64,000 nucleotides of DNA from Candidatus Oxydemutatoraceae bacterium (GCA_965219575.1 OZ244779.1:492769-556768), one strand, 5' to 3'. Shown: positions 1,845-21,214, counted from the stretch's first letter. Translations and numbers: made by a program. The notes: generated by a model not told the origin, from the sequence alone.

Positions 1845-2915
1845 TTAGAGTGATGTCGACATGTGCCTTATGATTGTTGTTCCCAAAGCCTTCGCCAGTT
1901 TCGGTGGCACTGCGTTTCCAATCATGCGTTGTATGGCGGTACGGTTCGGGATTTCTTCCTCGGAGCAGAATTCGTAATTTCTCGGAAAAGATTGCAGGAG
2001 CATGGCTTCTCTAAGTGTGATTGATCTGTCCTGTTCGGGATGCCCGAATCGCCCGTTTCCGATACCGGTGCAATGGGTTGTCATAGTCGGAGACGGCTTA
2101 TCCCACCACATTCTGCCGTAGTTGCAACCGTAGCTTTGTCCCGAGATTTTCTTATGGCAGTCCAATACCAAATTACTCGGCCAGTCATGTCGTGTACCGC
2201 CGTCATGCTTAGTCATACGCATGCGTTCTAGGTTCAAGGGTGAGAGGTCGGGAGCGCAGTGCATGCGATCCGTCGGATCTTCTTCGCCTGCTTTCAGAGG
2301 TGGCAGCTTTTCTATGGCTCTACGCACCGTTTCCCATTGCCCGTCATTTCGGTATGCTCCGGCGGGAACCGAAATTTTGCCTAAGCGAGAGGCTAGTAAG
2401 ACCCACCGTTTGCGTGATTGCGGGACACCGTATTCGCAACAATTAATAATTTTCCAGTCAACATGATATTTGTTCTTCGTTAAGGTTGCGAGAAATTGCT
2501 GAAACACAGCACTCCTTCGGCTCGCTAGTCCCGGAACATTCTCCATAGTAACGAATTCCGGTAATATCCCCTCTATATAACGACCGAAATGTTTCAGCAA
2601 ATCCCAGTCGTCATGAAGTTTTTTTTCTTTGGTGGTAAGTTGTGAAAACGGTTGGCACGGTGCACAACCGGCTAAGAGTCTATATTGTCCGGTTGCGAAT
2701 AGTCCGGCGACATCCGAATGGTGATTGCGAGTTAAATCCCACTCGTAAAACCGAGATCCCGGATTATTTGTTTCATAGGCATAGCGAGCCTGCCTGTCAA
2801 TATCGATGCCTGCCGCTACTCGGATACCCGCTTTACGCAATCCGTAGGTTAGACCGCCGGCACCACAAAAGAGATCTACGGCACTGATTTTCTTTGTAAT
2901 CGTTCTTTTAGACAT
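1845..2915 (-). CDS. dcm: DNA (cytosine-5) methyltransferase
   Basis: Motif I DLFCGAGG, IV GCAPCQPFS, VI ENV, VIII QSRKR, X IGNAVPP. Confidence 0.95.
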   Translation of the reverse strand: MSKRTITKKISAVDLFCGAGGLTYGLRKAGIRVAAGIDIDRQARYAYETNNPGSRFYEWDLTRNHHSDVAGLFATGQYRLLAGCAPCQPFSQLTTKEKKLHDDWDLLKHFGRYIEGILPEFVTMENVPGLASRRSAVFQQFLATLTKNKYHVDWKIINCCEYGVPQSRKRWVLLASRLGKISVPAGAYRNDGQWETVRRAIEKLPPLKAGEEDPTDRMHCAPDLSPLNLERMRMTKHDGGTRHDWPSNLVLDCHKKISGQSYGCNYGRMWWDKPSPTMTTHCTGIGNGRFGHPEQDRSITLREAMLLQSFPRNYEFCSEEEIPNRTAIQRMIGNAVPPKLAKALGTTIIRHMSTSL

Positions 2916-4709
2916 TAATGGATTTTATAATAGTTTCAATTCTTTGAATCTGCTTGCTTGCCTTTTCTTGAGCCTCTATATATTCTTTATATTGTTTCTC
3001 GGCTTGAGATATGATTTCTTGATATGTCGTTACCCTAATACCACTTTCTTGAAGAGTTCTTTTACCTGTTTCCATTTCATCGGGACTCTCCCAACCAATA
3101 GGAAATTCTCCTAGAATAATAACACCTTCCACGATGTTATCTTTTCTACCTGAGTCTTTTAATTCTTTGGAAACAGCACTCATATATTCGCGGATTTGTT
3201 TTGCTAAATCAAAATGGTTGAGTTTTCTTCCGGGTCTCTTAAGTTCTATCACCACATGTTGTTCGGGTGCTTTTTTGTATTGAATATCAATTCTTAATTC
3301 TTTTATCCTCTCTACTTCTTTGCCGGTTTTATCGTCAAGTTCTTTCCAACGTCTTTTTACCCGTTTTTCCAACTTTTGTTCTGCACAAGCTCGATCCCAG
3401 GAGGGATCTAATAACCACAAATGATCATATATATGTTCTTGAATAATTTTCTCTAGTTGCTTTTCATTTACATACTTTTGCAATTTATTTATGATTTCTA
3501 GACGCCCTTCGGTTATAGTGTAATAACTCATTGCTTCGATTTCATCTTGATTTCTGAACAATTCTGAGAATTGTTCTAAATTGTCTAAAGAAACATTGCT
3601 CAGAGCGTCTAAATTACCCCTCATACGCATTTGTTCTACAGCAGGTACGAAATGGCGAATTATATCTCTTTTCCTATCGCTGTCGTCAAGTGTTGCAGTA
3701 TATTTAAACAATCTATTGGTTATTTTTTGAGCATCTTGAGAAAGTTCGTCGTACCATTCTTTTATATCTTTATTTTTGCCAAGAATATCCTCTTTGGCTC
3801 TATCAGTTCTTAATTTGTGCCAATCTCCACATATATGTGTAACTAGACTCCTAATGCTTTCTTTAACATTTTGATAACGGTCGTCATTCTGATTTAAGTG
3901 TTGTCTGCCACTGGTTGCCATATCTTCTTCATCATCCCTGTCAAGATAATTTGCATGGATTTCTCCTATAAGATATTTTACGGCAACATCTCCCTTACCT
4001 AAGCTGTGTAATATATCCTCTTGGGCCAATCTACCGCGCATCATGATAGCGATATTATTAAAATTCTCGCCGCCGTCATCCATTAACTGGTTGACTTCGA
4101 ATACTGAACCAACCCATCCCGACAACCTGCTACCGTTATCTTTAATCAAATTTTTATCAATATGCTTATGCAAAGAATTGCAACAGGCTTTCTTAATTTC
4201 CGCTGCTTTGTCTTTATCTCCAAAAGTCCAGAGTTTTGAATTTTAGAGAAATAATTTCTGTCGCTTACGCTCACCTCGTCATTATTTACAAAAACCTTGA
4301 AATGATACTTATCTCCGATTATCGAGAATCTTCTAGATAGACGTTCTCTTAAATACTTATGTAGCCCCCTTGATTTATGTCGAAAACTAGTAAGTTCTAT
4401 TCTAGTGCCACAATCAAAGTTTATTTCACTATTTATTTCACTTTCATCTAGTTCATTCGGATAGTAATCGTTTTTTCCCTGAATTGCTTTTTTTATCTCG
4501 GGATACGACAATTCAAGCCCAATTTTCTTTCCTTCTTTAACCGAATACACCTTAACTTCATTAGCTATTGAGAATAGTGCCAATCTACCGATTCCTTTTC
4601 TCCCCATAACCGGTCGCTCATATTTTGGTGTTTTCTGTTCATTGGCATCCCGCCGCCGATAACCAATGGTGAGATATTTTTTTGGGAATTATATACTTAA
4701 ATACATAAA

Positions 4710-4868
4710 TCAGTCTCGCTTCTCTAGCTTAAAGCGAGTATTTAGTTCCTTAGTTGTGGGGTTTTTGTTCTGATACTTTGTGCGATTAGGGGTAGGCTTT
4801 AGCAACACCTCTTTTATAGCTTCCTTAAAATCCCTTTCGTTTATTGGTTTATGATCTTTAGGGTTCAT
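4710..4868 (-). CDS. 52-aa passenger ORF inside IS1595
   Basis: MNPKDHKPINERDFKEAIKEVLLKP...FKLEKRD*, translated by hand; below the ORF-track cutoff. Confidence 0.45.
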   Translation of the reverse strand: MNPKDHKPINERDFKEAIKEVLLKPTPNRTKYQNKNPTTKELNTRFKLEKRD

Positions 4869-4961
4869 TTCTTAAACTTTCGCTTACTTCACTTGACAAC
4901 GCTGGCAACATACTTGTTGGCGATTGCAGCTGTGTTATGAAACCGCTCTAAGCTATCCACT

Positions 4962-5921
4962 TTAATTACTGCCGGTAAGTTCTTTATAACTTAATCGCTT
5001 ACCCAAAAAGCCTTTAGCTAGTGCTGCCATGCGCTCTAGGGTATCTACTTGACAGTTTCCTTTGTTCAATCTAAAAGAAAACTCATCTACATATCTCGGC
5101 AAATGCTTTATGCTGACATGATGATAAGTTCCGCTTAATCCGCGCTTAAGCAAAGCCCATACGCTTTCTATGCCGTTGGTATGTGTCATGCCATTGACAT
5201 ATTCCTTCACCAAATGATTGACTGTATCATGTTTGTAGAGCATACCACTGACACTCAAATAACCTGAATGTTCATCAGTATATAATTGGCTACCGATTTC
5301 TACATTGCTAGTTATTGCTCTGTGTAGTGTAGGTTGCTTGGTGTTTGCAACTGGCATCGCTTTAGTTCTACCGCATCTCTCGCGCATGCCGAGTATGATA
5401 GATTTCCCAACCACACCTCTGCCAGATTTCAACTGCTTGTTCTCGTGCTTGTTCCGTTCCTTACCACCAATATAGGTTTCGTCTATTTCCACTGAACCCG
5501 ATAGCTTAAAAGCACCTTGCTTGCATGCCTCACGGACACGCTGTAGCATAAACCAAGCCGACTTTTGAGTAATGCTTAATTCCTTTGATAGCTGTAAAGA
5601 CGATACACCTTTACGCGCCGTTAGAATTAAATAACAAACAATCGCCCATTTTGTTAAAGGCAATTTTGAAGCATGCATTAGCGTCCCAGTTTTGACCGTA
5701 AATGTGTATTGTGGACTACACGAATTACAGCAATAAGCGTGCTGGTGTTGCTTATCTCTACGCTTAACTATGTTATCCTCTGAATTGCATTTAGGACATA
5801 CTGGGGTGCCGTTCCAACGCACAGCTTCAAACCATTTACTCGCTTTGTATTCAGTGGAAAACATCTTTTGCAACTCTAGTATGCCGATTGTTTTAGCTCG
5901 TCTTTTCATGTTTATCTCCAT
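4962..5921 (-). CDS. IS1595-family DDE transposase
   Basis: Zn ribbon CPKC...CNSC, HTH, then VEIDETYIGG, YTDE, HTNGIESVW and HLPRYVDEFSFR. Confidence 0.95.
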   Translation of the reverse strand: MEINMKRRAKTIGILELQKMFSTEYKASKWFEAVRWNGTPVCPKCNSEDNIVKRRDKQHQHAYCCNSCSPQYTFTVKTGTLMHASKLPLTKWAIVCYLILTARKGVSSLQLSKELSITQKSAWFMLQRVREACKQGAFKLSGSVEIDETYIGGKERNKHENKQLKSGRGVVGKSIILGMRERCGRTKAMPVANTKQPTLHRAITSNVEIGSQLYTDEHSGYLSVSGMLYKHDTVNHLVKEYVNGMTHTNGIESVWALLKRGLSGTYHHVSIKHLPRYVDEFSFRLNKGNCQVDTLERMAALAKGFLGKRLSYKELTGSN

Positions 5922-6461
5922 AGGTTATTTGTGTATCATTGTGTCACAAAATTAAAATAAATAAAACCTTAAATAACCCTTGAATTATATAGCTTTCATT
6001 AATCAGTTATGTATTTAAGTATATAATTCCCATTTTTTTTGGATGTCATCCCTGTTCATACCGTGACCGTCGTCTTTGATTACGATTTTGTCTTCGCTGG
6101 TCAGTATATCGACTCGTTCGGCATCGGCATCCCATGCGTTTGCTACTAATTCTGCGAGAGCAGCCGGAAATCCGCTGTATAGTTTGACACCTAGGTCGTC
6201 AATAGTGCCTAGGCTTACTTTCATGTATAAAGGTTTTTGCTCTTCAGCCATAACAAAGTTTTATCCGATTCAAGGGTTCGCCATATTATAGTCTATATAT
6301 GAGACAACCTTCCGCTAAGCAAGCGTAAGCCATAAATTAGGATGTAATCCCAAGTAGATATGTAACTAAAAATGGGGTAATGTCTATGCCATGCAGGGTG
6401 CTCTGCTTCTACTGTTCTTTCGCTGTTTAGGACGCAATATTTAGATTTTGTAAGAGGTTAC

Positions 6462-6537: not shown

Positions 6538-7533
6538 TCAATCGGCGGTTGTATCTTTTAGCTGTTCAATCTCAGTGGCGGATATACCTATCACCTCGGA
6601 AATCTCGGAAATCTCGTAACCTTTTTGTAGCATGTTCAGAGCGATTTCGTGATTCCTTGCTGTTTTACCTTTGCCCATTCCATCGGCATGCCCTTCTCGC
6701 AAGCCTTTCTCATAAAAACCACGCTCTTCCAATCTATCATCCAACTTTTGTATCTTTCGCACCATAGAAACTAGGTCTAATCTCCCATCTTTTGATACCT
6801 TCTCTAAATGTTCTAGTATCATTTTTGTCTCTTTGTCTTGTGATAGGTGTGCTACTTCTTCGTCTGTGAGATCGGCCGCTTTCTTCATAATGTAACACCA
6901 TCTTTCCTTCATATCGACTAGTTCAAAGCAGCTTTCTTTGAGTTTACTCAATTCCACCATCACCAATCTGGAACGCTGATTGAGCTCGTCATGCGGCTGT
7001 CCATTCGAATACCATATCGGTTGGTGTATATAGTCCGGTGAGTCTTCGAATAAAACGAGATCTTCAAACATCAACACATAGGCTGGTCTCCCTCTGTAAA
7101 AAATCCCTCGCTTCGCTAGCACAAAGTAAGGCGGCACTCTATCCAAGAAGTGGTCTTCAATAACCGCCGGCATCTCCACATTGACATTTTTGCCACTACT
7201 CAATGTCACCTTAAAGTCCAATATGATATGCCTATTATTCGGTGCCACCGACATTATAAAATCATCTTCCCAGCGTAGTTTGTCGCCCGGTTGATTTTGT
7301 TTGATGGTCTTTTGCCTATGGGAGAATATTTTGTCTAATTCTCTAGGTCTTAGAATGAATACATCCGAGATCTTATCGGTAATAGGCAAGAAACATTCAA
7401 ACAAGGAGATGAGTACTTGTTTATTGCTCGTAAAAAACTTTTTGAAAACGGCATCTTGTGTAAGTGATAAATATTTAGTTTGTTCCATGATAAATCTCCT
7501 GAGTTTTGATTGAAAACTCATAGTGTGGATCAA
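6538..7533 (-). CDS. Rpn-family (PD-(D/E)XK transposase-like) nuclease
   Basis: DAVFKKFF...LISLF, ILDFKV...NVEM, and C-terminal EKGLREG...IALNMLQKG.EISEI..VIG; likely start ATG 7488 after AGGAG. Confidence 0.85.
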   Translation of the reverse strand: MIHTMSFQSKLRRFIMEQTKYLSLTQDAVFKKFFTSNKQVLISLFECFLPITDKISDVFILRPRELDKIFSHRQKTIKQNQPGDKLRWEDDFIMSVAPNNRHIILDFKVTLSSGKNVNVEMPAVIEDHFLDRVPPYFVLAKRGIFYRGRPAYVLMFEDLVLFEDSPDYIHQPIWYSNGQPHDELNQRSRLVMVELSKLKESCFELVDMKERWCYIMKKAADLTDEEVAHLSQDKETKMILEHLEKVSKDGRLDLVSMVRKIQKLDDRLEERGFYEKGLREGHADGMGKGKTARNHEIALNMLQKGYEISEISEVIGISATEIEQLKDTTAD

Positions 7534-7556
7534 TATTCAATAACCTGAAAAAACAT

Positions 7557-7590
7557 TCCGATGAACGGTAGTAAATATCCGATAAACGGT
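7557..7590 (-). promoter_or_regulatory. Paired LytTR/AlgR-type boxes upstream of the Rpn gene
   Basis: Minus strand ACCGTTTATCGGA and ACCGTTCATCGGA with 21-bp period; same arrangement at 60500-60533. Confidence 0.5.
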
Positions 7591-7897
7591 GTGAGGTTGT
7601 ATAAAAACAGGCGGAATTATATCGACCTTCCCTCATTTTTAGGACCGCCTGCAAAGTTAGTTTTCATGTTATTGTCTGCGCAAATACACTTTGAAATAAC
7701 ATAAGTATTAATAGTCATTCTGCACAATTGGTTATAGGCAAGATAACCAATTCAAGTGGTATTGCCATCATATATAAAAAGGCAAGAGTGACTGTAGAAA
7801 ACTGATGGATAGATTATAATGAAGTCCGCCACACAGTGCATTGTCAACGATGCTCGGTAAGCGCGGTAAAGTCTATAATTACTCAGCCTAAGAATGC

Positions 7898-9868
7898 ATG
7901 ATGGGAAAACGATTTGATACAGAACTAGAACAACTAGAGCATACATATAAATGGGCTATAGGTGTTGATGTATCAAAAATATCTTGCCTAATCAGAAACT
8001 CTTGTGGTCTTCCTCTGCTATCCGTTGGATCAGGAGGTTCTTTATCAGCTGCAGAGTTTCAAGCCCTTCTTCATAGAACTCTATTTTCGTCCATTGGGCA
8101 GGCTGTAACACCCGTTGAATTAATCTCAATGCTTCCGAGAAATAGGGAAGTTGCAGTTTGGTTTATGTCGGCTAACGGTGACAATATCGATATTTCCCGA
8201 GCCTTTAAGCACACGGCCTTGCATGAAATGAAGTTTGTCAGTGCATTGGTTTGCCGAAAAGAGAGCAAGCTACATAAGCTATCAACAGAATATGAATATA
8301 CAAAGTGTTTTCAATTTCCTATCCCTTCCGGGAAAGACGGTTTTCTTGCAACTAATTCGCTTCTTGTTTTCCTAGTTATCCTCTATAGAGCGTACGGTGA
8401 GGTAATTAAAGAAGTAAATAAGACAGTAGGTTTATCTAAAACACTAAACGCATTAATCAGAAAGTGCCTAGCAAATTTTAGTGGTCTTAAGGACATCAAA
8501 AAAAACGCAGCACCGCTATGTAATAAAAAATCCATACATGTTTTATACAGCCTTGACCTAAAACCTGCCGCATTGGATATTGAATCAAAATTTACGGAGG
8601 CGGGACTCATCTCTTCCCACTTGGCGGATATCAGAAATTTTGCCCACGGCAGACATAATTGGTTCTCAAAGTATGAGGCAGACAGTGGCGTTATTGCCTT
8701 ATCAACCAATAATGATTATAAAGTGATAGAAAAAACGCTTGCCTTATTACCGAATACAATTCCTAAGACTCATATTTCTTTTAATTACTTGGGTGGTGTT
8801 GAAGTAATTGTGGGAATAGTATTATCAATGCACTTGACAAATTGGCTTGGGAAAGAAAGAGGCATTGATCCGGGACGGCCTGGGATTGCGTCCTTTGGTT
8901 CAAAAATATATAGACTGGCAGCTAATCCAGGGTTTGTTACCTCAGTAAAGAAAAAGGAAGCAGCTATAGAAAGAAAAAGAAAATTAGCCCCTCTAAATTA
9001 TGGTAATAGGAGCGAGCAACTATGGGTTGATGCGCATAATAAATTTACCCGAAAGCTTGCAGCAGCGAATATAGGCGGGGTTGTTTTAGATTATGACGGA
9101 ACGGTTGTGGATAGCGATAAACGTTGGGATCCGCCGGGCGCAAGAATGATAAGTGAACTGATAAGATTGTTAGAAGAGAACATGGTTATAGGTTTTGCAA
9201 CAGGTAGAGGAGACTCAATAAGGGATGATTTGCAACAAGTTATTCCAAAGAAGCTTTGGGGTAAGATATTGATAGGTTACTATAATGGTGCTGAATTAAA
9301 ACACTTGTTAGAAAATACAGACTTGAGAACTGCCTCTGACCCTATACCGGAACTAAAGTTACTATCTACTAAATTAAAAAAGAATATTTTTTTACATTCA
9401 GTTGCTGACTTTAAGCAAAAAGAATATCAACTAACCGTAAAATCGAAAGAAAACAAACCTCTTTCGGAGACATTTTTATGGGACTTGGTTCAAGATGAAT
9501 TTCATCAATATCTGGAGCATAAAGGAGACGAGCTTTCTGAGTTTTCTGGGCATAGAGCAAAAATTCTTCGCTCCAGTCATTCAGTAGATATAATTGCAGG
9601 GGATGTATCTAAACTATCTGTAGTAAAAGCAATCAGACAAAATATACAGGAAAATTCTGAGATCTTGAATATTGGAGATAGAGGGAGATGGCCTGGCAAT
9701 GATGCCGAACTTCTCAAAGAAACTCTGTCTTTAAGTGTTGATGAGGTTTCGTATTCTTCAGAGACTTGTTGGAATCTGTGTCCAGCCGGTATCCGAGGCG
9801 CACAAGGCACCCTTTATTATCTTAGCCGATTGAAAAGAAAAAATGGAACCATGAGGTTTTTTCCGTAG
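7898..9868 (+). CDS. SIS (sugar isomerase)-like domains fused to a HAD-family phosphatase
   Basis: SIS-like VGSGGSLSAA, SANGDN, GFLATNS, NFAHGRH; HAD motifs DYDGT, ATGRG, K and GDRG...GND. Confidence 0.8.
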   Translation: MMGKRFDTELEQLEHTYKWAIGVDVSKISCLIRNSCGLPLLSVGSGGSLSAAEFQALLHRTLFSSIGQAVTPVELISMLPRNREVAVWFMSANGDNIDISRAFKHTALHEMKFVSALVCRKESKLHKLSTEYEYTKCFQFPIPSGKDGFLATNSLLVFLVILYRAYGEVIKEVNKTVGLSKTLNALIRKCLANFSGLKDIKKNAAPLCNKKSIHVLYSLDLKPAALDIESKFTEAGLISSHLADIRNFAHGRHNWFSKYEADSGVIALSTNNDYKVIEKTLALLPNTIPKTHISFNYLGGVEVIVGIVLSMHLTNWLGKERGIDPGRPGIASFGSKIYRLAANPGFVTSVKKKEAAIERKRKLAPLNYGNRSEQLWVDAHNKFTRKLAAANIGGVVLDYDGTVVDSDKRWDPPGARMISELIRLLEENMVIGFATGRGDSIRDDLQQVIPKKLWGKILIGYYNGAELKHLLENTDLRTASDPIPELKLLSTKLKKNIFLHSVADFKQKEYQLTVKSKENKPLSETFLWDLVQDEFHQYLEHKGDELSEFSGHRAKILRSSHSVDIIAGDVSKLSVVKAIRQNIQENSEILNIGDRGRWPGNDAELLKETLSLSVDEVSYSSETCWNLCPAGIRGAQGTLYYLSRLKRKNGTMRFFP

Positions 9869-9875
9869 AGAGAAG

Positions 9876-11006
9876 ATGAATAGAGAACTCGGTTTTGAAA
9901 ATTTAGAGAAGATTATGGGATGGGATGATGAAGATGCCCAGAAAGAATCCGATTGGCTTCGTTTTATGTCTAAATATAAGTACGATGATTATAGGGGATA
10001 TCTTGTTGGTGCAAGGTTTATTGAAAGTCTAGTTATCTGGCTTCAGCAATTTGAATCTAAGGATCAAAAAGCGGCTTATGAATATATAAAAGAAAACTTA
10101 ATTTATATCGGTCCTGCTGAAATACAACGACTTATTGGGAAATTTTTTTATGAAGAAGTGCAAAAAAATCTGAGAGAAAAAGTTGCCAAAACTCTGGGTG
10201 TTCCAGAGTATATGGTTTGGTCTTCAGAGAGAAGCGTGGATGAGTTTAAATCTGAAATTCGGAGAACATTGTTTATGGGGTTGAGTGATGGCGCACGTTT
10301 GGACTCCTTCAGAAGAGCTAATGCAGACATATCGAATGAGCAAGTTGTAATAACTACAGAGATTAATAATATCAAATGGGAGGACTTGCTTAAAGAGCTT
10401 GCCGATGACTCTAAAGATAAAGGTAAAGACAAGGAAAAACAAAAATTTGAGAGGGTTTATTTAATTGATGACTTTACTGCTTCTGGAACTAGTCTGATAA
10501 GGGAAGAAAAAAAAGAACTTAAAGGAAAATTAAAAAAGTTTGCCGATGCTCTAAAGCAAGCCCAAGAAAATTTAACAGAGCGTCTTTTTGTAAATAGATT
10601 TCAAATAATAGTCCACCATTATATTGGCACTTATCAAGCGAAGGAAAAAATTGAACAACTATATAATGAACCTTGGATTAAAAAAGAATTGGATATACCC
10701 GATATTCGATTTTCGTTTGGTATGCTTCTTCCTAAAGATATAAGGCTTATCCGCTCTTCCGAAGAGAAATTCGCAGATTTATGTAAAAAATATTACGATC
10801 ATTCTATATACGATGAGCACTTTAGAAAAAGTGGAGCTCCAGACGGAAAATTTGGATATGCTGAATGTGGCATCCCTCTAATCCTATATCACAATACACC
10901 CAATAATTCTCTTTCATTATTGTGGGCAGAAACTAAGGGGGATGAAGGGCATACTATGAAGCCCTTATTTAAAAGAGGACAACGTCATAAGGAATGGTCG
11001 GGATAA
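9876..11006 (+). CDS. Phosphoribosyltransferase-like protein (PRTase-CE-like)
   Basis: PRPP-loop-type motif VYLIDDFTASGTS; C-terminal FGY...L..YHNTPNNS..LLW...PLF.R. Confidence 0.75.
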   Translation: MNRELGFENLEKIMGWDDEDAQKESDWLRFMSKYKYDDYRGYLVGARFIESLVIWLQQFESKDQKAAYEYIKENLIYIGPAEIQRLIGKFFYEEVQKNLREKVAKTLGVPEYMVWSSERSVDEFKSEIRRTLFMGLSDGARLDSFRRANADISNEQVVITTEINNIKWEDLLKELADDSKDKGKDKEKQKFERVYLIDDFTASGTSLIREEKKELKGKLKKFADALKQAQENLTERLFVNRFQIIVHHYIGTYQAKEKIEQLYNEPWIKKELDIPDIRFSFGMLLPKDIRLIRSSEEKFADLCKKYYDHSIYDEHFRKSGAPDGKFGYAECGIPLILYHNTPNNSLSLLWAETKGDEGHTMKPLFKRGQRHKEWSG

Positions 11007-11010
11007 AATT

Positions 11011-12942
11011 ATGATTAATCCCTTCAAGAAAAGAGCCACTGAGTATTTGCGTGATGATGTGGCATTTTTGTCTGTCATTGCTCCGGAACCGTTGCATACA
11101 TTTTTTGAAAAGTATGCTAAAGAAGGGAAACTATATGACCGTCTTAGTATGATTGTTGGAACACCAGGAAGTGGCAAAACGATAATCTCACATCTACTAC
11201 AATATCAAACTGTTCAAACACTATTAGCAAATCCTCTTGCTGATCAATATAAACGATTAATTTATGCTCTCAGAGAATGTGGAATAATTGAAGTTTCAGA
11301 AAATACATTTTCTAGTACATTCGTTGGTTGTCGAATCCCGATGGAATCTGAATATAGAGACTTTTGGGAATTGCCCTATGACGACAATATCAAAATGGGA
11401 TTGCTCAAGTCCTTTTTACAGGCGCGCGCCATGCTTTCATGGTTAAAAAACATTGACATTGATCCTAATGTTGATCTTTTATCAGTAAAAATTCAGTTGC
11501 GTGAAGGTGCCGGTGTTGCCCAAAACAGTCTAGGGGGAAATGATGGCAAAAGCCTATTTGAAAAGGCTAGGGACATTGAGTCCTCTATATACGAAATAGA
11601 AACCGCTTTGGTGCCGCCCTCGGAAGAGAAATTGAGTAGTAACATTGCATCAGGATCTTATCGTCCTTTTGACGCAATAGAGTGTTTTGTTGTCAATAAA
11701 ACGGATGGTCCTGCTTCGCTAAGACCTATGGTAATGCTTGATGATATTCATACCTTACATCCTAAACAATTATCAAATTTAGTTAATTGGTTAGCAAAAA
11801 GAGAGATGAAAATTGCTAGATGGATATTTATGCGACTGGATACAATAACACCTAAATCTATCTTTTTAGGGGAACTACATACAAACTATGATGTTGAATA
11901 TGAATCACCCATCAAGCAGAGCAGAGAAATCACTTATATTTGGTTGCAAGATCTAGAAAATAGAAAAGAAGCACGATCCGAATTTCAAAAAATGGCACAA
12001 ACTATGGCAAATAAATATCTACAACGCATGCCAATATTTGACCGCCAAGGGTTAACGGATTTTTCCGGTCTTCTTAACAAAAAAGTTGAGCCTATTAGCG
12101 ACCCTAAAATGAACAAACTGAAAAATAGGGTTGAAAAATTTGTCTCTAAAATAAATATCCATGAACAAATTTATCAAAAATTTGAAAAGGATATTGAATC
12201 GTATTTTTTAGGTGCAAAAACTATTGATAACTCAAAGGACGTAAAGTTGGCAATGCTTTACATTATGCTGAATAGATACCTAAAAAGAGTGCCTCAAAGG
12301 AGCTTATTTGATCAACCAGAATTCAAGCCGATTAAACCTAGTTCTGGTTTAGTAGATGGTGCAAAGATATTTCTTATGCATGAGTATGATCGCCCATACT
12401 ATTATGGGGTAGATACTGTTTGTCGTGGGAGTTCCGAAAATGCAGAGCAGTTTCTGCAATTATCTAGCCGGCTTGTGGACAAGATGGAAACAAGGATAAT
12501 TAGATCTAAGCCCGCGAACTTGTCCCCAGATTATCAGCATAAATTACTTAAAGAGCGCGCAGAAGAGATAGTTAAAGAATGGGATTTTCCAAGGAGCCGT
12601 GAAGTTAAAAAGTTATGTAAACTTATGGCTAAAGAATGTTTGGAAAAGAGCCGCGAACCCAACGCTCCTTTGAATGGAGGGGCAAATGCTATTGGTATTC
12701 CACGGGATGAGTTTGAAAAAATACTATCGGAATCGCAATATTCAGAGTTGAGAGAAATTTTAAAGTTTGGAATGGCATATAATGCAATTACTATGAAGCC
12801 CAGGCACTCTACCAAAAATAAATTATGGACTCTAATAGAACTGTCTGGGCCGATGATTATTTTTTCTGGTCTGACATTATTTAGAGGTGGGTTTTTAGAG
12901 AGAACTGTAAACGATTTATTAAGCTGGCTTAAAGAAGAGTAA
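11011..12942 (+). CDS. P-loop ATPase (ORC/CDC6- or STAND-like)
   Basis: Walker A GTPGSGKT and Walker B VMLDD; N-terminal NPF..RATE. Confidence 0.75.
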   Translation: MINPFKKRATEYLRDDVAFLSVIAPEPLHTFFEKYAKEGKLYDRLSMIVGTPGSGKTIISHLLQYQTVQTLLANPLADQYKRLIYALRECGIIEVSENTFSSTFVGCRIPMESEYRDFWELPYDDNIKMGLLKSFLQARAMLSWLKNIDIDPNVDLLSVKIQLREGAGVAQNSLGGNDGKSLFEKARDIESSIYEIETALVPPSEEKLSSNIASGSYRPFDAIECFVVNKTDGPASLRPMVMLDDIHTLHPKQLSNLVNWLAKREMKIARWIFMRLDTITPKSIFLGELHTNYDVEYESPIKQSREITYIWLQDLENRKEARSEFQKMAQTMANKYLQRMPIFDRQGLTDFSGLLNKKVEPISDPKMNKLKNRVEKFVSKINIHEQIYQKFEKDIESYFLGAKTIDNSKDVKLAMLYIMLNRYLKRVPQRSLFDQPEFKPIKPSSGLVDGAKIFLMHEYDRPYYYGVDTVCRGSSENAEQFLQLSSRLVDKMETRIIRSKPANLSPDYQHKLLKERAEEIVKEWDFPRSREVKKLCKLMAKECLEKSREPNAPLNGGANAIGIPRDEFEKILSESQYSELREILKFGMAYNAITMKPRHSTKNKLWTLIELSGPMIIFSGLTLFRGGFLERTVNDLLSWLKEE

Positions 12943-12944
12943 AC

Positions 12945-14087
12945 ATGACTGTCTCCTCTGGAGGGAATGGAAATAGATGGGAATTATGTATCGACCACTA
13001 CGACGATGCAGTGTCCGAATTTTTTGAGCAACACTTTTCGGAAGAACATAGGGAGTGCCTTTTCATTGGAAGCGTAGGATTTGATCCTAGAAGTAACATC
13101 ATAGTTAAAGAATTATGCTCTATTATGGAAGAGCGTTTACATATTATCTTACTGGAAGAGATACGTTCTAGCTCCGATTTAGAGTTAGTAAAAAGAACAA
13201 AGGGAAATATAGCCGAAGCTAAAAACCTATCTTCCCAAACCAAAGTTTTAGAAATAAATATATTTTCAGAACATGATGGGGCTGTAGTTGGAGGTATCGG
13301 TATTCTCAATCGCATAAAAGAAATAGATATTACTAACTATGCTGATATTGTTATTGATATGAGTGTATTTTCTGTTGGTGTCAGCTTCCCTCTCGTTAAA
13401 TATATTTATGAATGGGCAAATAACGCTAAAAAGCCCGTTAATGTTCATTTGACATTTACTTCTAATAACGAACTAGATTCTTACATATCTGAATCTTCGA
13501 CTTTAACTGATTATGCAACCAATGTTAGAGGATTCCCAACCCCCAATTTGTTGGGGGCAGGAGAAAAAGCGAAACTTTGGCTTCCTCTAATGTCTACCGA
13601 TAAAGAGAGGATTTTGAGTAAAATTTATGATAGAACAAAACCGCATGATATCTTTCCTATTTTTCCATTTCCATCAGAAGATCCTAGAGAAGGAGACAAA
13701 CTTGCCGCTATTTATTATAGGGAAGAGTTAGGAAGCCTTTGGGAAGTTGACCCACAAGATTTTATATATACAGACGAAGAAAGACCTCTGGATATTTACC
13801 GAACTATTATGAGAATTAATGAAGACCGTGAACTGGTATTTAAGACATTTGGCGGATCAATGCTAATTTTATCTCCTCTAGGTAGTAGAATGCCAGCTAT
13901 TGGTATGTTGATGGCTGCACTAGAAGGCGGGTTTCCTGTCGTGTATGTTGAGACATTAAATTATCATGTCGAGGATTGGGGAAAAGTTGATGAAACATCA
14001 CAGGAGGAGAATATGGAAATTGCCCATTTTTGGCTTTACGGGGAAGCCTATTATAATGACAAAAAGAAATTTGAATCCTTGAAATAA
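12945..14087 (+). CDS. Hypothetical alpha/beta protein of the PRTase-ATPase operon (possibly CARF-like)
   Basis: 380 aa, 2 bp after the ATPase; FIGSVGFDPRS, IVIDMSVF and LSPLGSR..AIG segments; fold guess is inference only. Confidence 0.6.
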   Translation: MTVSSGGNGNRWELCIDHYDDAVSEFFEQHFSEEHRECLFIGSVGFDPRSNIIVKELCSIMEERLHIILLEEIRSSSDLELVKRTKGNIAEAKNLSSQTKVLEINIFSEHDGAVVGGIGILNRIKEIDITNYADIVIDMSVFSVGVSFPLVKYIYEWANNAKKPVNVHLTFTSNNELDSYISESSTLTDYATNVRGFPTPNLLGAGEKAKLWLPLMSTDKERILSKIYDRTKPHDIFPIFPFPSEDPREGDKLAAIYYREELGSLWEVDPQDFIYTDEERPLDIYRTIMRINEDRELVFKTFGGSMLILSPLGSRMPAIGMLMAALEGGFPVVYVETLNYHVEDWGKVDETSQEENMEIAHFWLYGEAYYNDKKKFESLK

Positions 14088-14098
14088 ACAAGTGGATT

Positions 14099-15148
14099 AT
14101 GAATAGATACCTACCAAGCGTTTATGGCACAGGCTTAGTTTCGCTAGACATTATTATAAGTATGCGCCCCGAAGAGCATTATCACTGGTCTGGTGGTACA
14201 TGTGGCAATGTTCTGACCATATTAAGTTATTTAGGATGGGAATCTTTTCCTATCGCTCGGTTAAATTCCGATGCTGCCTCAGTTCGTGTGAGAGCAGATA
14301 TGGAACGCTGGAATGTTCGCTTAGATTATGCCGAGCAATCACCTACGACCAGTACTCCGATTATTGTCCAAGAGAATTCGATCAATAGGCAGGGGCTATC
14401 CGTTCACAAATTTCACTGCAGACAGTGTCCTAGATGCGGCGCAGGGCTTCCAAATCACAAGGCAGTTACTCTTTCGGCTACTGAGCGGATAAAAGATGAT
14501 GTCTCGCAAGGAACCCTTTTCTTTTTTGATAGAACCTCTCCCGGTGCCATTAATCTTGCAAAACACTTCAAACGTATTGGGGCAATTATATTTTTTGAAC
14601 CATCTGCCAAGTCGGACTTAAGACAGTTAAAGCAGGCTCTAATGCTTGCAGACATCGTTAAATATTCGGATAAAAGATATCTTGAGCCAATGTCGGATAT
14701 CAAAGGTGCCACTTCTGCTTTCCTTGAGATTCATACTCTGGGGAGTGAGGGTTTGCGATATAGAACCCATGCCTCAAGCAGACTTAGTAGAAGATGGAAG
14801 AGATTACGGACTTTTCAGGCACGGCAATTCAAAGATAGCTGTGGTTGTGGTGATTGGACAAGTGCTGGTTTAATATCAAAGCTTTGTAATAGAAAAGCAG
14901 CACGCTTGAGAGGGGTATCAGAAAATTCCGTTATTACCGCACTAAATTATGGACAGGCTTTAGCGGTGTGGAACTGTGATTTTGAAGGTGCTAGGGGAGG
15001 AATGTATCAAGTAAAAAAACTTACATTTAAGAAACATATTCAACAAATACTTAAAGCTGGTGTTCTAAAAAGAGGAAATCGTACAAAAACACTAGAAAGC
15101 GAAATTTTTGATAGTGAAAGTTGTTGCTGCTACAGCTTAAGTGCATAA
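14099..15148 (+). CDS. PfkB/ribokinase-family carbohydrate kinase with a Cys-rich insert
   Basis: GGTCGNV...LSYLG and DSCGCGD (PfkB DxxGxGD signature); CRQCPRCG insert. Confidence 0.85.
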   Translation: MNRYLPSVYGTGLVSLDIIISMRPEEHYHWSGGTCGNVLTILSYLGWESFPIARLNSDAASVRVRADMERWNVRLDYAEQSPTTSTPIIVQENSINRQGLSVHKFHCRQCPRCGAGLPNHKAVTLSATERIKDDVSQGTLFFFDRTSPGAINLAKHFKRIGAIIFFEPSAKSDLRQLKQALMLADIVKYSDKRYLEPMSDIKGATSAFLEIHTLGSEGLRYRTHASSRLSRRWKRLRTFQARQFKDSCGCGDWTSAGLISKLCNRKAARLRGVSENSVITALNYGQALAVWNCDFEGARGGMYQVKKLTFKKHIQQILKAGVLKRGNRTKTLESEIFDSESCCCYSLSA

Positions 15149-15171
15149 GCCTTTTGATTGGCGGGAGTAGA

Positions 15172-15276
15172 AAACATTCTCCCCAAATTTAGTACTAATA
15201 CTAAAGTTAGATTCCCCGATTAACTGGCAGCATAAAAACTAACTTTTTAGACGGACCTAAAAATGGGGTAACGTCA
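15172..15276. mobile_element. ~105-bp miniature derivative of the IS3 at 28721-29934
   Basis: Left part ATTCTCCCCAAATTTAGTACTAATACTAAAGTTAG and right part AAAATGGGGTAACGTCA resemble the reverse complements of the two ends of the full IS3. Confidence 0.7.
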
Positions 15277-15376
15277 TTCCGAGCGGTAATTTCTCAACAG
15301 CCACCCTCGGCAACTGCCCCATGCAAAGGCTTTACATTTATAATATGTGTTAGGGTTTTGCACGGGATAGCGTCGA

Positions 15377-18300
15377 TTGAATATTTTGGTTTTGAGGATT
15401 TTAGCGAAAGTTCTAGCGATATTCTTTTTGGGGGCAGGCATGCAGTCGGTTACCGCACAATCACAGGAAATGGGCGATCCGCTATACGATCGGCAATGGC
15501 ATCTTGAAAATACCGGGAGAAATACCAGCCAAGGCATTCCCGGCGAGGATATCAATGTAGAACCAGTTTGGAATACAACGCTTACGAATGGGGTAAAAAT
15601 AAGAGGGCAAGGTACATACATTGCCATAGTAGACGGAGATTTACCCATTGCAAGGCAATCTACTATAACCGAGCTGTTGGCTCACCCGGATCTAATAGAA
15701 AATATATCAACTCGGCACAGCGTTGATTATTATCCTTCGGTGATCGATGACGATAGTCATGCTACCGCCGTAGCGGGTATTGCTGCGGGGCGTGGTTATA
15801 ACGCAATAGGTGTTAGGGGTGTGGCACCTTGGGCAAAAGTTTATAGCTTGAATATTTTAGGATTACCTAACGGTAATAGGAGTATTTCGAGAATTATTGA
15901 GAGGTCGGTTGGCTTAGATGCAATGGTTCGCCACACCACAATAACCTCGGTTTCCAATAACAGTTGGGGGAGTCTGGATCCCTTTAGACCGTCCGGTGAC
16001 GCTCTTGTCGCATGGGAAATGGCAATAGAAACCGGCATTAGGAATGGGTTCCATGGCAAAGGAACAGTCTACACTTGGGCCGGCGGAAACGGGAGTTGTA
16101 TTAGCAGAAGAATAGCGTCTAACCGCTATGAACAAGTTTGTAACATAGACACTTCAAATTATGACGGCAGGGCAAAGTATCATGCAGTCGTTGCCGTATG
16201 TTCGGTGGATAATCAAGGAAGACATCTTGCGTTCTCGGAACTTGGTGCCAATTTATGGGTTTGCGCCCCATCGCGAGGGATTACTACAACTTCTAGAGGT
16301 AGGAGGGTCATTATTAGAGATAGGACTATTATTTCAACCTATAGGCATGACTTATACACGACATCGTTCGGCGGAACCTCTGCTTCAACTCCAATGGTCA
16401 GCGGTGTGGTGGCATTGATACGACAAGTCAACCCGAGTCTTAGCTGGCGCGATGTAAAATTAATTCTGGCTAATTCCGCAAGGCAAAACGACCCCGAGGA
16501 CGATGACTGGGCACAAGGTGCCGTAAAGTATGGTTTATCCGGCGATGAGGACGAGGCGCGATATCACTTTAACCACAAATATGGATTCGGTGTTGTCGAT
16601 GCACAAAAGGCGGTTGAACTGGCGCAAGGGTGGATCAATCTCCCTCCCGTAGCAACAACATATACCGAAGTAATCAACCGCAATATAGACCTTAGGCTAA
16701 GTGCCGATAATCTCGTTATTAATAGCAGTATATCCGTGCAGTCCGATATCAATTTTATCGAGCATGTGCAGGTTCCTATCGGATTAACACACCCTCTAAT
16801 CCAAGATTTAAGCGTTGAATTGACCTCACCTTCGGGTGTTACTTCAGACCTAATAATACCATCCACTTATCCCATCAGTAGTACTAGTTCATACGCAATC
16901 GGTGTTAGCGGCTTTTGGCGTTTCGGTTCAAGCGCGCATTTAGGCGAAGATCCGTCGGGGGTTTGGAGGTTAAGATTTGAAAGCACTAGGCCTACAACCG
17001 GCACTTTGATTACATGGGGAGTTAGAATACGCGGCTATCAAATAAAAATGGATGCTACCTCCGCCGTCGGGTTATCAGGCAAAAATGTAGTCGAAACTCC
17101 GCTGCCCTTGTCTTTGATCGGTGCAAGTTGGGAAGAAGATTTGCAGCCCGAAGATTTTAGGCTGAAAAATGCGCCGACAGGATTGCGCATTGCAAGTGTA
17201 AGTCGTACTTCCGATACACAGGTTGCGCTGAATCTTGCGTTGGATGGGAGGCTTGCGAGGGACTACCTCTTTCAAGTCGAAGCAACGACAAGTACGGTTC
17301 CAAACATCAGAAACTCACTTATTAGCGACGACATATCAATCGTATTGGAAGTGCCCGAAGCACCGCTGCTAGAAATTACTGCTCAACCGGAGCAAGCGAT
17401 AGAAGCGGGAAATAGCGCAGAGGTAGAAGTCTCGGTGGCAGATAATAATTTTGATGTCGGCGATCGTGTCACATTGACGGCGGAGTCATCGAGCCGAACG
17501 ATTGTGTCGGTGACGACATCGGCGAAAACCGATGAGATAACGACTAATACGAGCATTACCTTCATGCTGACCGCTGTGCAAGGTGGAGAAGCGATGGTTA
17601 CATTTACCGCAACCGATAGTAGAGGATTGAGCGTTAGCAAGACGATATTGGTACGTGTTGATGCAATGCCGACCGGTCGTGTCGGCATAACACCGGACAG
17701 CGATGATAGATGGTTGCTACATGGGACTTCAACGATAATGGATGCAAACGGCATCGCCGAGAAAAATTATCGGTGGTATAGAAACGATCGAATAATAAGT
17801 GGAGCAACCGGTGATAGCTATGAGATACCGGACAATAGAAATGGACGAGCCACAGGAACACGCTATAGATTAGAAGTATCGGTTGTGGACAATATAGGAC
17901 AATCGGTGACCACTCAATCCAATACGATCACGGTCGCAAACGAAGCACCCGTTATTGATGGACAGATTACTGCTTTGCCGTCTCCGGTGGAGGAAGGTCG
18001 GGAAACAGTAATCACTGTTCCCGCCGGAGATGCAAACTACGATAGCTTGACTTATAGCTGGAGTGCGACCGGTGAGCATAGCGGAATAAATATATCCGGA
18101 AACCCGGCAACATTGATCATTCCGCCCGACTTTGTAGATGCTGCATCCACCGAGACAACGGCGAACTTGGAAGTAGTGGTGGATGACGGATCTGCCGCCA
18201 CGACAGGAATGGTGTCGGTGGTGGTACACAAGATAAATAATGGTTCTTTGACTTTAAGAATTTCCATAGCGGTAGGAAGTCGTGCGACAACATTAACGGC

Positions 18301-18637
18301 AGAGGTGTTATCCGACGACCCCGACGGTGGAACGAGCGGGACTGTGGTGTATCAATGGCAAGTATGTGAAGGGAGTAGAGGACGTTGTCCGCCGCCGCAG
18401 CAATGGCAGAATATTGATGAAGCCACTCAAACACAGTACATCATATCGGGTTCTAGCATTTTAGTAGGAAACAATCGATTCTCTCTGGTAGAAGACAGTA
18501 GCATATTTCGCATTCAAGCAACTTATCGCGACGGTCAAGGTTATCAAGAGAATGTTCGCTCGGCAGAACGTATTTATACGACTCGCCCGGTACTTAGGAT
18601 TCGCTCTAAAGTATTTTTGGAGGGTCCTCTCCAATAG
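15377..18637 (+). CDS. Secreted S8 subtilase (kexin-like, with P-domain) followed by Ig-like repeats
   Basis: Signal peptide; catalytic IVDGD, HATAVAG and GGTSASTP; oxyanion AGGNG; YGFGVVDA; P-domain GEDPSGVWRL; Thr/Ser-rich beta repeats; ends LRIRSKVFLEGPLQ. Confidence 0.9.
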   Translation: MNILVLRILAKVLAIFFLGAGMQSVTAQSQEMGDPLYDRQWHLENTGRNTSQGIPGEDINVEPVWNTTLTNGVKIRGQGTYIAIVDGDLPIARQSTITELLAHPDLIENISTRHSVDYYPSVIDDDSHATAVAGIAAGRGYNAIGVRGVAPWAKVYSLNILGLPNGNRSISRIIERSVGLDAMVRHTTITSVSNNSWGSLDPFRPSGDALVAWEMAIETGIRNGFHGKGTVYTWAGGNGSCISRRIASNRYEQVCNIDTSNYDGRAKYHAVVAVCSVDNQGRHLAFSELGANLWVCAPSRGITTTSRGRRVIIRDRTIISTYRHDLYTTSFGGTSASTPMVSGVVALIRQVNPSLSWRDVKLILANSARQNDPEDDDWAQGAVKYGLSGDEDEARYHFNHKYGFGVVDAQKAVELAQGWINLPPVATTYTEVINRNIDLRLSADNLVINSSISVQSDINFIEHVQVPIGLTHPLIQDLSVELTSPSGVTSDLIIPSTYPISSTSSYAIGVSGFWRFGSSAHLGEDPSGVWRLRFESTRPTTGTLITWGVRIRGYQIKMDATSAVGLSGKNVVETPLPLSLIGASWEEDLQPEDFRLKNAPTGLRIASVSRTSDTQVALNLALDGRLARDYLFQVEATTSTVPNIRNSLISDDISIVLEVPEAPLLEITAQPEQAIEAGNSAEVEVSVADNNFDVGDRVTLTAESSSRTIVSVTTSAKTDEITTNTSITFMLTAVQGGEAMVTFTATDSRGLSVSKTILVRVDAMPTGRVGITPDSDDRWLLHGTSTIMDANGIAEKNYRWYRNDRIISGATGDSYEIPDNRNGRATGTRYRLEVSVVDNIGQSVTTQSNTITVANEAPVIDGQITALPSPVEEGRETVITVPAGDANYDSLTYSWSATGEHSGINISGNPATLIIPPDFVDAASTETTANLEVVVDDGSAATTGMVSVVVHKINNGSLTLRISIAVGSRATTLTAEVLSDDPDGGTSGTVVYQWQVCEGSRGRCPPPQQWQNIDEATQTQYIISGSSILVGNNRFSLVEDSSIFRIQATYRDGQGYQENVRSAERIYTTRPVLRIRSKVFLEGPLQ

Positions 18638-20347: not shown

Positions 20348-21214
20348 TCACAGCCGTTCGGCTATTTTTTCTATTTCTTTTTGGTTGGATTGTGGGGTTT
20401 GCACTTCAATCGCTTTCCATACGCTCAGGTATCCGATTTGGTCAATGATTTTTTCCAATTTTTTATTGTCAATTTTTTTGTTTTTTTCGAGAAATAGCAA
20501 TAGTCCGCCGAATATGTTTTCCGAACTTATATAGCTTTTCCCGCTATGCATTTTTGCAGAAAACCCAGCATAATATTTTTCATCTAGAATTTTCAGTATA
20601 AGGCTGGGTTCCCTATCTATAATGTTGGACATTTTATCTGCCCACCGCCATCGCCAGTAGGCCTTTCCGAGATGAAAATCATTAAATACGATTCTCGTAC
20701 CTCTTGGTATCGGATTGCACATAGAGCGTAAAACTCTTCTAACACGCTTGTCTATTTTTCCTACCTCGCCGGATGCTAGGGCATTGTCAATCATATAACT
20801 GCCTGTGCCATTTGTATCCTTAGAGTCCGATGCCAAAAAAAGTGGCTGGATCTGATCATTCTCGATCATCTTGATAATCATATAACCCCAGAAATTACAC
20901 TTGCAGGCGACTTCATCGGGTAGCTCCTTAAATGCTTGCCAGATTTTTTCTTGAGTATCATAAGGCGGGTGAATGAATTCTCGCTCGGTAAATTGGTGTG
21001 TAAAATTAACCAGTTGACCATCGCTAGAATTATCCAGCAACTTCTTGTGTTTTAAGTGTCTTAGAAAATCATTTTTTCCCAATTTACAAGCAGCGAGAAA
21101 TTCTCTTTGTTCCTCCGAGCCTTTATTCTTATTCAACTCCTTACCAAAATCCTCCCAGAGCTCTCCATCAAGTATTTTATATTCACTCATCATCGGTTTC
21201 TGTTCTGATTTCAC
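20348..21214 (-). CDS. Hypothetical protein, last gene of the PP-loop/GHKL operon
   Basis: 288 aa, overlaps the upstream gene; FWGYM and LGKAYWRWRW segments; no family recognised with confidence. Confidence 0.7.
   Translation of the reverse strand: MKSEQKPMMSEYKILDGELWEDFGKELNKNKGSEEQREFLAACKLGKNDFLRHLKHKKLLDNSSDGQLVNFTHQFTEREFIHPPYDTQEKIWQAFKELPDEVACKCNFWGYMIIKMIENDQIQPLFLASDSKDTNGTGSYMIDNALASGEVGKIDKRVRRVLRSMCNPIPRGTRIVFNDFHLGKAYWRWRWADKMSNIIDREPSLILKILDEKYYAGFSAKMHSGKSYISSENIFGGLLLFLEKNKKIDNKKLEKIIDQIGYLSVWKAIEVQTPQSNQKEIEKIAERL

Follow-up and report, generated by a model that had tools for sequence, protein, structure and literature searches.

Retrons and DprA-PRTase systems probably use phosphoribosyltransferase (PRTase) proteins as effectors, whose mode of action is given as unknown (PMC9122126), and PRTase-CE families mark type III-A retron groups (PMC13712802). 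The suffix CE denotes "conflict effector" in a preprint (bioRxiv 10.64898/2026.01.15.699771), which also describes PUA-Calcineurin-CE-HAD, a system that depletes deoxynucleoside triphosphates (dNTPs) and in which the HAD phosphatase is required to augment the effector. In this study, we have analyzed a 64-kb stretch of DNA from Candidatus Oxydemutatoraceae bacterium (GCA_965219575.1, OZ244779.1:492769-556768), hereafter called the window, to which all positions refer; it carries a cassette of five plus-strand genes at 7898-15148, named g1 to g5 in order. This cassette is probably a conflict system in which an ATPase and a CARF protein form the sensor/switch and a PRTase-CE protein is the predicted effector, most likely serving antiphage or antiplasmid immunity. 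PUA-Calcineurin-CE-HAD resembles the cassette in combining a CE effector and a required HAD with a nucleotide-ligand sensor, pool depletion, and abortive infection (an outcome that is predicted for the cassette); it differs in its PUA-like sensor, its phosphoesterase effector, and its C1-cap HAD, and in having no ATPase, CARF protein, or kinase.

The five open reading frames (ORFs) encode proteins of 656, 376, 643, 380, and 349 amino acids (aa) in the ORF listing. The first gene, g1 (7898-9868), encodes a double-SIS module of the GlmS/NagB-II phosphosugar isomerase/deaminase type (approximately residues 1 to 350) fused to a HAD-IIB phosphatase (approximately residues 390 to 656); g2 (9876-11006) encodes a member of the conflict-effector PRTase-CE family, the predicted effector; g3 (11011-12942) encodes an ORC-CDC6-like AAA+ ATPase, the predicted sensor/switch; g4 (12945-14087) encodes a putative tandem CARF protein without an effector domain, the predicted ligand sensor; and g5 (14099-15148) encodes a PfkB-family sugar or nucleoside kinase with conserved cysteine pairs. 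RefSeq names the products as a HAD hydrolase, three hypothetical proteins, and a PfkB kinase. An earlier reading of the sequence alone, which we refer to as the original prediction, had described an AT-rich, tightly spaced, codirectional operon with intact catalytic motifs; our analysis reproduced the coordinates and the gaps of 7, 4, 2, and 11 bp (g1-g2, g2-g3, g3-g4, and g4-g5, respectively), gave a GC content of 37.7% for the cassette compared with 44.8% for the window and 48.4% for its housekeeping part (30.4 to 64 kb), and located all four motifs (DYDGT at residue 398 of g1, IDDFTASGTS at 197 of g2, GTPGSGKT at 50 of g3, and DSCGCGD at 246 of g5). The 364-bp intergenic region upstream of g1 (7534-7897, plus strand), which separates it from a divergent PDDEXK_2 gene, is the presumed promoter region. 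A promoter-like scan of 7400-15500 returned 20 sites against a shuffle mean of 23.3, that is, no excess, and numbers from the promoter/terminator scan did not rise above those of shuffles; because promoter-like sites were no commoner than in shuffled sequence, the operon promoter is one that we infer rather than one that was observed.

The identities of g2 and g3 link the cassette to conflict-system families. Pfam PRTase-CE (PF24390) matched g2 with an E value of 2e-24 (87.3 bits against a cut-off of 27), and Pfam ORC-CDC6-like (PF24389) matched g3 over residues 3 to 522 with an E value of 3.4e-11 (43 bits against a cut-off of 27), confirming the pairing of PRTase-like and ORC/CDC6-like proteins to which the original prediction had referred; a whole-genome search with PF24389 likewise scored g3 above the cut-off. 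Across 22 sequences, g2 has the loop consensus VYLIDDFxGSGTS with D198 and D199 invariant; we take this loop, two acidic residues followed by small ones, to be the motif that binds phosphoribosyl pyrophosphate (PRPP). An HNTPNN motif in g2 is also invariant. In PADLOC, g2 matched the retron-type PRTase_III-A model (2.7e-17), a point of resemblance to type III-A retrons; we also compared it with DprA-PRTase (ShosTA-like). The neighbors of g2 are a SIS-HAD protein and an ATPase, neither a reverse transcriptase (RT) nor a DprA-like protein. A type III-A retron was considered and set aside: no RT domain was found in the scanned ORFs of the island, msr/msd not having been searched for.

In g3, the Walker A and Walker B motifs are intact, and D244-D245 are invariant. 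It has more than 1438 homologues, part of which are named "ORC-CDC6 family AAA ATPase" by NCBI, and a search of the ESM Atlas did no more than confirm the ORC-CDC6-like clusters. Neither Pfam nor a PDB profile search revealed a recognizable nuclease or other killing domain in g3, and PDB sequence-profile searches with g2, g3, and g4 gave nothing past P-loop matches. At one of the 80 cassette loci described below, g2 and g3 are joined in a single 1019-aa ORF (L052:6925-9984). This may be a natural fusion, in which case it supports a physical association of the two proteins; an assembly or frameshift artifact is also conceivable, since the locus comes from a single metagenome-assembled genome.

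The names of PF24389, PF24390, and PF24391 (HD-CE) presumably go back to Nicastro, Burroughs, Iyer, and Aravind (2023), who reportedly predict that Calcineurin-CE, HD-CE, and PRTase-CE break nucleotides down at either their phosphate or their glycosidic linkages; some of these systems are said to lie downstream of new signal-making enzymes. Relatives of this kind occur in the phylum of the host. Of 401 genomes sampled from this phylum, 13 had a PF24389 match above the cut-off, and eight of the best loci were fetched, two of which were rearranged copies of the cassette and six of which were canonical ORC-CDC6-like operons (L119 to L124) with ATPase scores of 214 to 425 bits. In two of the canonical loci, the gene directly upstream of the ATPase encodes PRTase-CE; in another it encodes HD-CE, and in the remaining three a calcineurin-like phosphoesterase, once with a wHTH-Calcineurin_assc domain. 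All six thus have a CE or calcineurin-like gene in this position, further strengthening the pairing. Directly downstream of the ATPase, five of the six carry a 313- to 351-aa gene without a Pfam match, and DNA methylases adjoin three. In conflict systems, an ATPase that stays the same while its catalytic partners are exchanged usually indicates an effector slot, and the replacement of PRTase-CE by HD-CE or a calcineurin-like protein marks g2 as the predicted effector. Like the cassette, the canonical operons thus consist of an effector, an ATPase, and, in five of six, a third gene of approximately 320 to 380 aa; the cassette differs from them in its SIS-HAD and PfkB genes, which are absent from all six, and in its divergent g3. 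Alignment of the canonical third gene with the g4 family (hhalign, 51% probability, E value of 1.5e-4, 255 columns including both CARF-like loops) is suggestive of homology between the two.

The original prediction had listed the 380-aa product of g4 as unknown. That label no longer applies: g4 matched the PADLOC model CARF6--CARF_CARF_CARF (PDLC01916) over its full length (2.6e-82), and in a wide structure search with VIA-align, its predicted model (predicted local distance difference test score [pLDDT] of 81, predicted template modeling score of 0.84) had CARF proteins as all of its best 20 chains. The best was Can1 (6sce_A; Z of 14.6, root mean square deviation [rmsd] of 3.3, and 233 residues aligned over 37 to 338), compared with a Z of only approximately 7 for SAVED domains. 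As modeled, g4 is therefore a tandem CARF protein. Clustering at 50% identity divides its CARF family into 814 clusters; g4 itself had no Pfam or NCBIfam match and no effector domain. A Foldseek search against the PDB pointed to tandem universal-stress-protein and KCC C-terminal domains, and was set aside as uninformative (TM of approximately 0.2 to 0.26, rmsd of 17 to 19). When compared with Can1, Csm6, Can2, Card1, and Csx1 and with the SAVED sensors of CBASS, g4 is like Can1 in having the CARF fold twice in one chain, and unlike the type III CARF effectors it has no fused nuclease or other effector. The host genome, a single contig that is 98.9% complete, had no match to Csm1, Cmr2, or SMODS, so that the CARF ligand would not come from a type III CRISPR system or a SMODS-type cyclase in that genome. 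A role as a type III CRISPR accessory was rejected, as there was no Cas10 match in the host genome.

Structure prediction also supports binding of g3 to g4. Residues 1 to 630 of g3 and 10 to 372 of g4 were modeled as a complex from family alignments in three runs, with a median interface score (ipSAE) of 0.72 against 0.01 for the best control; among solved complexes, 58 of 80 attain a value of 0.72, compared with 2 of 110 mismatched pairs. Contact agreement between runs was at least 91%, and the pLDDT of the partners was at least 84. The predicted interface involves residues 112-120, 139-146, 183-201, 248-252 (next to Walker B), and 525-527 of g3, and, on g4, the invariant DGAVVGG loop (108-121) and the interdomain linker (188-205), a region that the monomer model leaves disordered. 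The proposal that the ATPase and the 380-aa protein act as a sensor/switch is strengthened, because g4 appears to be a tandem CARF protein and is predicted to bind g3.

The remaining two genes encode sugar-phosphate enzymes. Both halves of the SIS-HAD protein named in the original prediction are real, and the SIS half can be refined to a double-SIS module. Pfam detected in the g1 of the window only the HAD-IIB hydrolase (residues 395 to 608), with no SIS match, and structure searching was needed to reveal the SIS part: the AlphaFold model (mean pLDDT of 90.3) matched in Foldseek the NagB-II glucosamine-6-phosphate deaminases 8fdb_B (E value of 1.6e-11, TMt of 0.72) and 7kqa_B (TMt of 0.75) and the GlmS isomerase domain (1moq) in the PDB. 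Among 24 family members, Pfam Hydrolase_3 was found in all and Pfam SIS in three. The phosphate loop S45-G-G-S48, residues E229, E234, and H250-G-R-H253, and the residues of the four HAD motifs, D398, D400, T402, T435, K572, D594, and D602 are invariant in these members, and K231 is nearly so; K231, E234, and H250 presumably correspond to catalytic residues of GlmS, an equivalence that we treat as a lead only. The kinase g5 matched Pfam PfkB (8.7e-9) and, in a PDB profile search, ketohexokinase (4.6e-12) and several fructokinases; it retains a conserved DTCGxGD signature and has cysteines that are invariant (C110, C113, and C343) or nearly so (C346). These cysteines may form a zinc ribbon. NCBIfam matches of the cassette proteins to HAD-IIB and kinase families were weak and all under the cut-off, and no nucleotidyltransferase domain was found by Pfam in the five proteins. 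Double-SIS, PfkB, and HAD enzymes are classes shared with GlmS/NagB-II/AgaS, FrlB-FrlD, and GmhA-HldE-GmhB; unlike the Frl and ADP-heptose sets, the cassette has no transporter, regulator, or nucleotidyltransferase, and its SIS module is fused to HAD and is not of the single-domain GmhA type.

The five genes travel together well beyond this host. When one genome per species was scanned for g4, 168 of 185,579 genomes were positive, and the 80 best of these loci were retrieved together with 10 kb on either side; since these loci were chosen by g4, co-occurrence is measured from g4 outward. Searches with tblastn found g5 in 80, g3 in 79, g2 in 75, and g1 in 70 of these loci, on one strand and always in the order g1-g2-g3-g4-g5. 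An ORF spans each of the five matches in 67 loci, including short copies of g1 in L041 (at a contig start) and of g3 in L078 (334 aa); among the other 13, 8 run into a contig end (L011, L016, L023, L025, L040, L046, L053, and L061) and 5 look disrupted (L017, L048, L056, L058, and L080). Median intergene spacings are -4, +9, -14, and +3.5 bp. By record titles, the loci represent at least 11 phyla: Pseudomonadota, Bacteroidota, Nitrospirota, Gemmatimonadota, Planctomycetota, Acidobacteriota, Chloroflexota, Actinomycetota, Poribacteria, Myxococcota, and Desulfobacterota. Among 72,556 plasmid records, g4 was found in 19, g1 in 20, and g2 in 20, and all 19 records with g4 also carry g1 and g2; of the two records beyond these, that for g1 is a partial match to the HAD part only, and that for g2 has a query coverage of 87%. 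Among plasmids, the SIS-HAD fusion is full length only inside the cassette. The co-occurrence of the five genes is far beyond chance.

More distant copies, which are rearranged, suggest that the cassette consists of two modules. The order is g2-g3-g4-g1-g5 in Paenarthrobacter and at L126 and g1-g5-g2-g3-g4 at L125; plasmids of Burkholderia gladioli and Rhizobium lentis carry NADAR-g1-g2-g3-g4 without PfkB; and a Sphingomonas variant has g1-PfkB, a NADAR gene on the opposite strand, a helix-turn-helix gene, and then g2-g3-g4. In all rearranged variants seen, g2-g3-g4 is contiguous, and g1, g5, and NADAR relocate or swap. The core is thus g2-g3-g4, and g1 and g5, sometimes with NADAR, form the second module. 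A NADAR gene directly adjoins the standard cassette in 4 of the 80 loci. NADAR genes were observed near the cassette at L003, L008, L035, L037, L084, L087, L088, and L126. This recurrence hints that N-ribosyl bond chemistry is central.

The cassette is horizontally mobile. It is lower in GC than the nearby housekeeping DNA (37.7% against 48.4%) and patchy among relatives of the host, with g4 in 2 of 41 related genomes including that of the window itself (G000); 9 of the 19 cassette plasmids are conjugative, many copies are on large rhizobial plasmids, and at four loci (L022, L036, L085, and L125) the cassette lies between conjugation genes. When 770 flanking ORFs were clustered, no family occurred in more than 5 of the 80 loci, so there is no sixth conserved gene, and the genes that flank the cassette in the window were found again at none of these loci. 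Scans of the closest ORF on either side used Pfam (147 proteins) and PADLOC at an E value of 1e-20 or lower (146 of them). Neighbors of mobile type (integrase, transposase, resolvase, TraG/VirD4, TrbL, TrwC, ParB, and ArdC) were found in 21 of the 80 loci, and credible PADLOC defense neighbors in 12: AbiEi at L006, L032, L043, and L070; BrxA at L032; MTase_II at L027; HEC-01A/AriA at L044; a type III restriction endonuclease at L045; DrmD at L050; PD-T7-1 at L054 and L065; HNH at L067; and CapP at L075. Four other PADLOC rows were set aside: two relaxases with RecD-type matches, a fragment of GajB, and an ABC ATPase matched by mad3. In 11 further loci, Pfam neighbors were patatin, TIR, SLFN/AlbA_2, RES, STAND, DUF4365, or SLOG. 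Transporter-like neighbors numbered 2 of 147 (a major facilitator superfamily protein at L020 and an ABC ATPase at L066). The contexts are thus varied and rich in mobile and defense genes rather than conserved and metabolic; together with the recurrence of all five genes in one order, this favors the conflict-system idea in the two respects that could be checked computationally.

Among the forms that such a conflict system could take, destruction of the nucleotide pool is the one that we favor, tentatively, as a plausible account. The core would work as a sensor/switch complex of g3 and g4 that controls the effector g2. The switch would be triggered by a nucleotide-like ligand that binds in the CARF pocket, by invader DNA that the ATPase senses, or by the two together, and would release PRTase-CE. 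This enzyme would go on to attack the N-glycosidic bond of nucleotides or to exhaust PRPP, so that the nucleotide pool would collapse and replication of the invader would be aborted. The second module would be a catabolic helper: the kinase could supply substrates of the effector, and the SIS-HAD protein could isomerize and dephosphorylate the released ribose phosphate so that salvage would fail. The NADAR N-glycosidase would be an alternative helper, added to or replacing genes of this module.

Several points weigh against this interpretation. Classical PRTases build N-glycosidic bonds and do not break them; the degradative direction is therefore an assumption that rests on the effector swap and on the reported 2023 proposal. 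As a set, the kinase, isomerase, and phosphatase resemble a biosynthetic route no less than a sink, and the cassette has no obvious self-protection component. The family matches are weak here (87 bits for PRTase-CE and 43 bits for PF24389, compared with 129 to 187 and 214 to 425 bits, respectively, in canonical systems), and g4 aligned with the canonical third gene with a probability of only 51%. A scan of IMG/VR with a g3 profile found no relative and thus no direct phage link, an absence that is compatible with a host or plasmid system. The richness in defense neighbors consists of qualitative counts without a background rate, and the counts over 80 loci are not independent, since the loci were chosen by g4 and many come from related alphaproteobacteria. 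Finally, full-text literature searches, whose coverage did not extend to Nicastro 2023 or Makarova 2020, found no experimental work on the cassette and no description of the five-gene form, and the accessible parts of Makarova 2014, Kaur 2020, Domainator, and CoCoNuTs held nothing relevant. The original prediction knew of no characterized system of this makeup; this stands insofar as no experimental work was found, although Pfam or PADLOC already models three of the five proteins. None of g1, g3, and g5 is covered by a PADLOC model. Since models exist for PRTase-CE, ORC-CDC6-like ATPases, and CARF6, the kind of system is already known computationally.

The main rival, a less likely one, is also a conflict system: upon infection, the kinase, the SIS and HAD modules, and perhaps the PRTase would build a new ribose-phosphate or phosphoribosyl-nucleotide messenger. 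The CARF protein would read this messenger and switch the ORC-like ATPase, which would execute the response on DNA. PRTases normally synthesize N-ribosyl bonds, all four enzymes keep their catalytic motifs, and SIS, PfkB, and HAD are the classes of GmhA, the HldE kinase, and GmhB, which make ADP-heptose. The CARF sensor has no fused effector, it docks beside the ATPase site of g3 in the model, and, with no Csm1, Cmr2, or SMODS match in the host genome, the source of its ligand must lie elsewhere. There is also a precedent in the Ter system, where PRTase and HAD modules are proposed to make a nucleoside-like signal (PMC7824862 and PMC5512222). However, the sister operons fill the PRTase slot with HD-CE or calcineurin-like hydrolases and do so without SIS, HAD, or kinase genes, which fits an effector better than a synthase. 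A pathway of several steps would be a slow alarm, PfkB is absent or replaced by a NADAR glycosidase in variants, and g3 is without a recognizable nuclease or killing domain with which to execute the response. A more specific version, in which the four enzymes would make a noncyclic phosphoribosyl or ribulosyl nucleotide that the CARF protein reads to gate the ATPase, and which would amount to CARF signaling without a cyclase, is somewhat less likely again.

A reversible modification or toxin-antidote system, in which PRTase-CE would phosphoribosylate a DNA or RNA base, a nucleotide, or a protein and NADAR, or PfkB with SIS-HAD, would undo the adduct, is improbable. NADAR reverses the DarT modification, and PfkB with a double-SIS protein is the FrlD/FrlB pair that strips sugar adducts from amines; moreover, NADAR lies directly beside the cassette in the four loci mentioned above, replaces PfkB as the head of the operon on two plasmids, and recurs at L126 and in the Sphingomonas variant. 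Nevertheless, NADAR is absent from the other 76 of the 80 loci and from the window, a reversal by three enzymes would be cumbersome, the modification has no known target, and the fold of g1 matches GlmS, NagB-II, and AgaS in general, FrlB not having been specifically compared. Equally improbable is a nonimmune, mobile metabolic or biosynthetic operon for ketoamine or amino-sugar catabolism or a nucleoside-like metabolite, with g3 and g4 as regulators, since its four sugar-phosphate or nucleotide enzymes, the annotation of g1 as "sucrose-6-phosphate hydrolase" in some records, the many copies on large rhizobial plasmids with metabolic cargo, and the one locus that adjoins an ABC transporter operon are set against the lack of a conserved transporter, regulator, or further enzyme (no flanking family in more than 5 of 80 loci, 2 transporter-like neighbors of 147), strict linkage to conflict-system families, repeated insertion among conjugation genes and beside defense genes, and patchy occurrence among relatives; a plain sugar operon was rejected, as no transporter or regulator is conserved in the 80 loci.

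The surroundings of the cassette in the window are an island of restriction-modification (R-M), Rpn, insertion sequence (IS), and PDC-M33A genes. The original prediction had placed the cassette between R-M/Rpn genes and IS debris and had seen no transporter or sugar regulator; scans of the flanks agree on the location, and domain scans of 1 to 30 kb of the window found neither, the downstream subtilase having gone unmentioned. On the minus strand at 1363-6251 lie a Vsr gene (1363-1809), a Dcm methylase gene (1845-2915), and a set of type II restriction endonuclease/HATPase_c_3 ORFs. The restriction gene is fragmented (2908-4173, 4146-4607, and 6015-6251) around an IS1595-family transposase gene (4962-5921), and the R-M system looks as if it had been inactivated by the insertion. 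The divergent PDDEXK_2 (Rpn-like) gene upstream of the cassette is at 6538-7533 on the minus strand. Directly downstream of the cassette, a plus-strand gene (15377-18637) encodes a 1086-aa S8 subtilase with a proprotein-convertase P-domain and a bacterial Ig domain, which has a weak match to the PADLOC "subtilase" model (6.6e-9) and is next to the cassette in none of the 80 loci. Past the subtilase follow an rve_3 fragment, a four-gene minus-strand cluster, an AAA_16 ATPase gene, and an IS3 transposase gene. The cluster (20348-25181) encodes two 288-aa proteins without a family match, a 614-aa GHKL/HATPase that matches the PADLOC candidate PDC-M33A (7.3e-25), and a 417-aa protein whose DndC/SspD/PAPS-reductase-like matches are weak, and is possibly another candidate defense system.

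Ordinary metabolism genes begin at approximately 30.4 kb. Among them, a plus-strand 310-aa ORF (36584-37516) amid genes for lipoyl synthase and a nitrilase-family hydrolase has a weak match to an Eco57I-type methylase (2.1e-5) and is possibly a remnant. At 41647-43695, a tRNA cluster (Asn, His, Arg, and Pro) is followed by a gene for a 444-aa AAA_15/AAA_21 ATPase (42361-43695), of a kind known from abortive-infection and OLD-like systems.

Immune destruction or rewiring of the nucleotide pool is an emerging theme, and the dedicated SIS-HAD and kinase genes of the cassette should make its chemistry tractable. Because g4 appears to be an "orphan" CARF protein, found in genomes without known makers of CARF ligands, its ligand would inform the use of CARF domains outside CRISPR, and CARF signaling without a cyclase, if true, would represent a new class of second messenger as well as a new biosynthetic route to one. 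Nicastro 2023 or its supplement may show the five-gene neighborhood already, in which case it had been predicted before. No immune effector of the PRTase family has a known mechanism (PMC9122126), and the cassette offers a compact and well-conserved test case. Since it is frequently carried on conjugative plasmids, sometimes inside transfer-gene clusters, the cassette may play a part when plasmids compete with phages or with one another.

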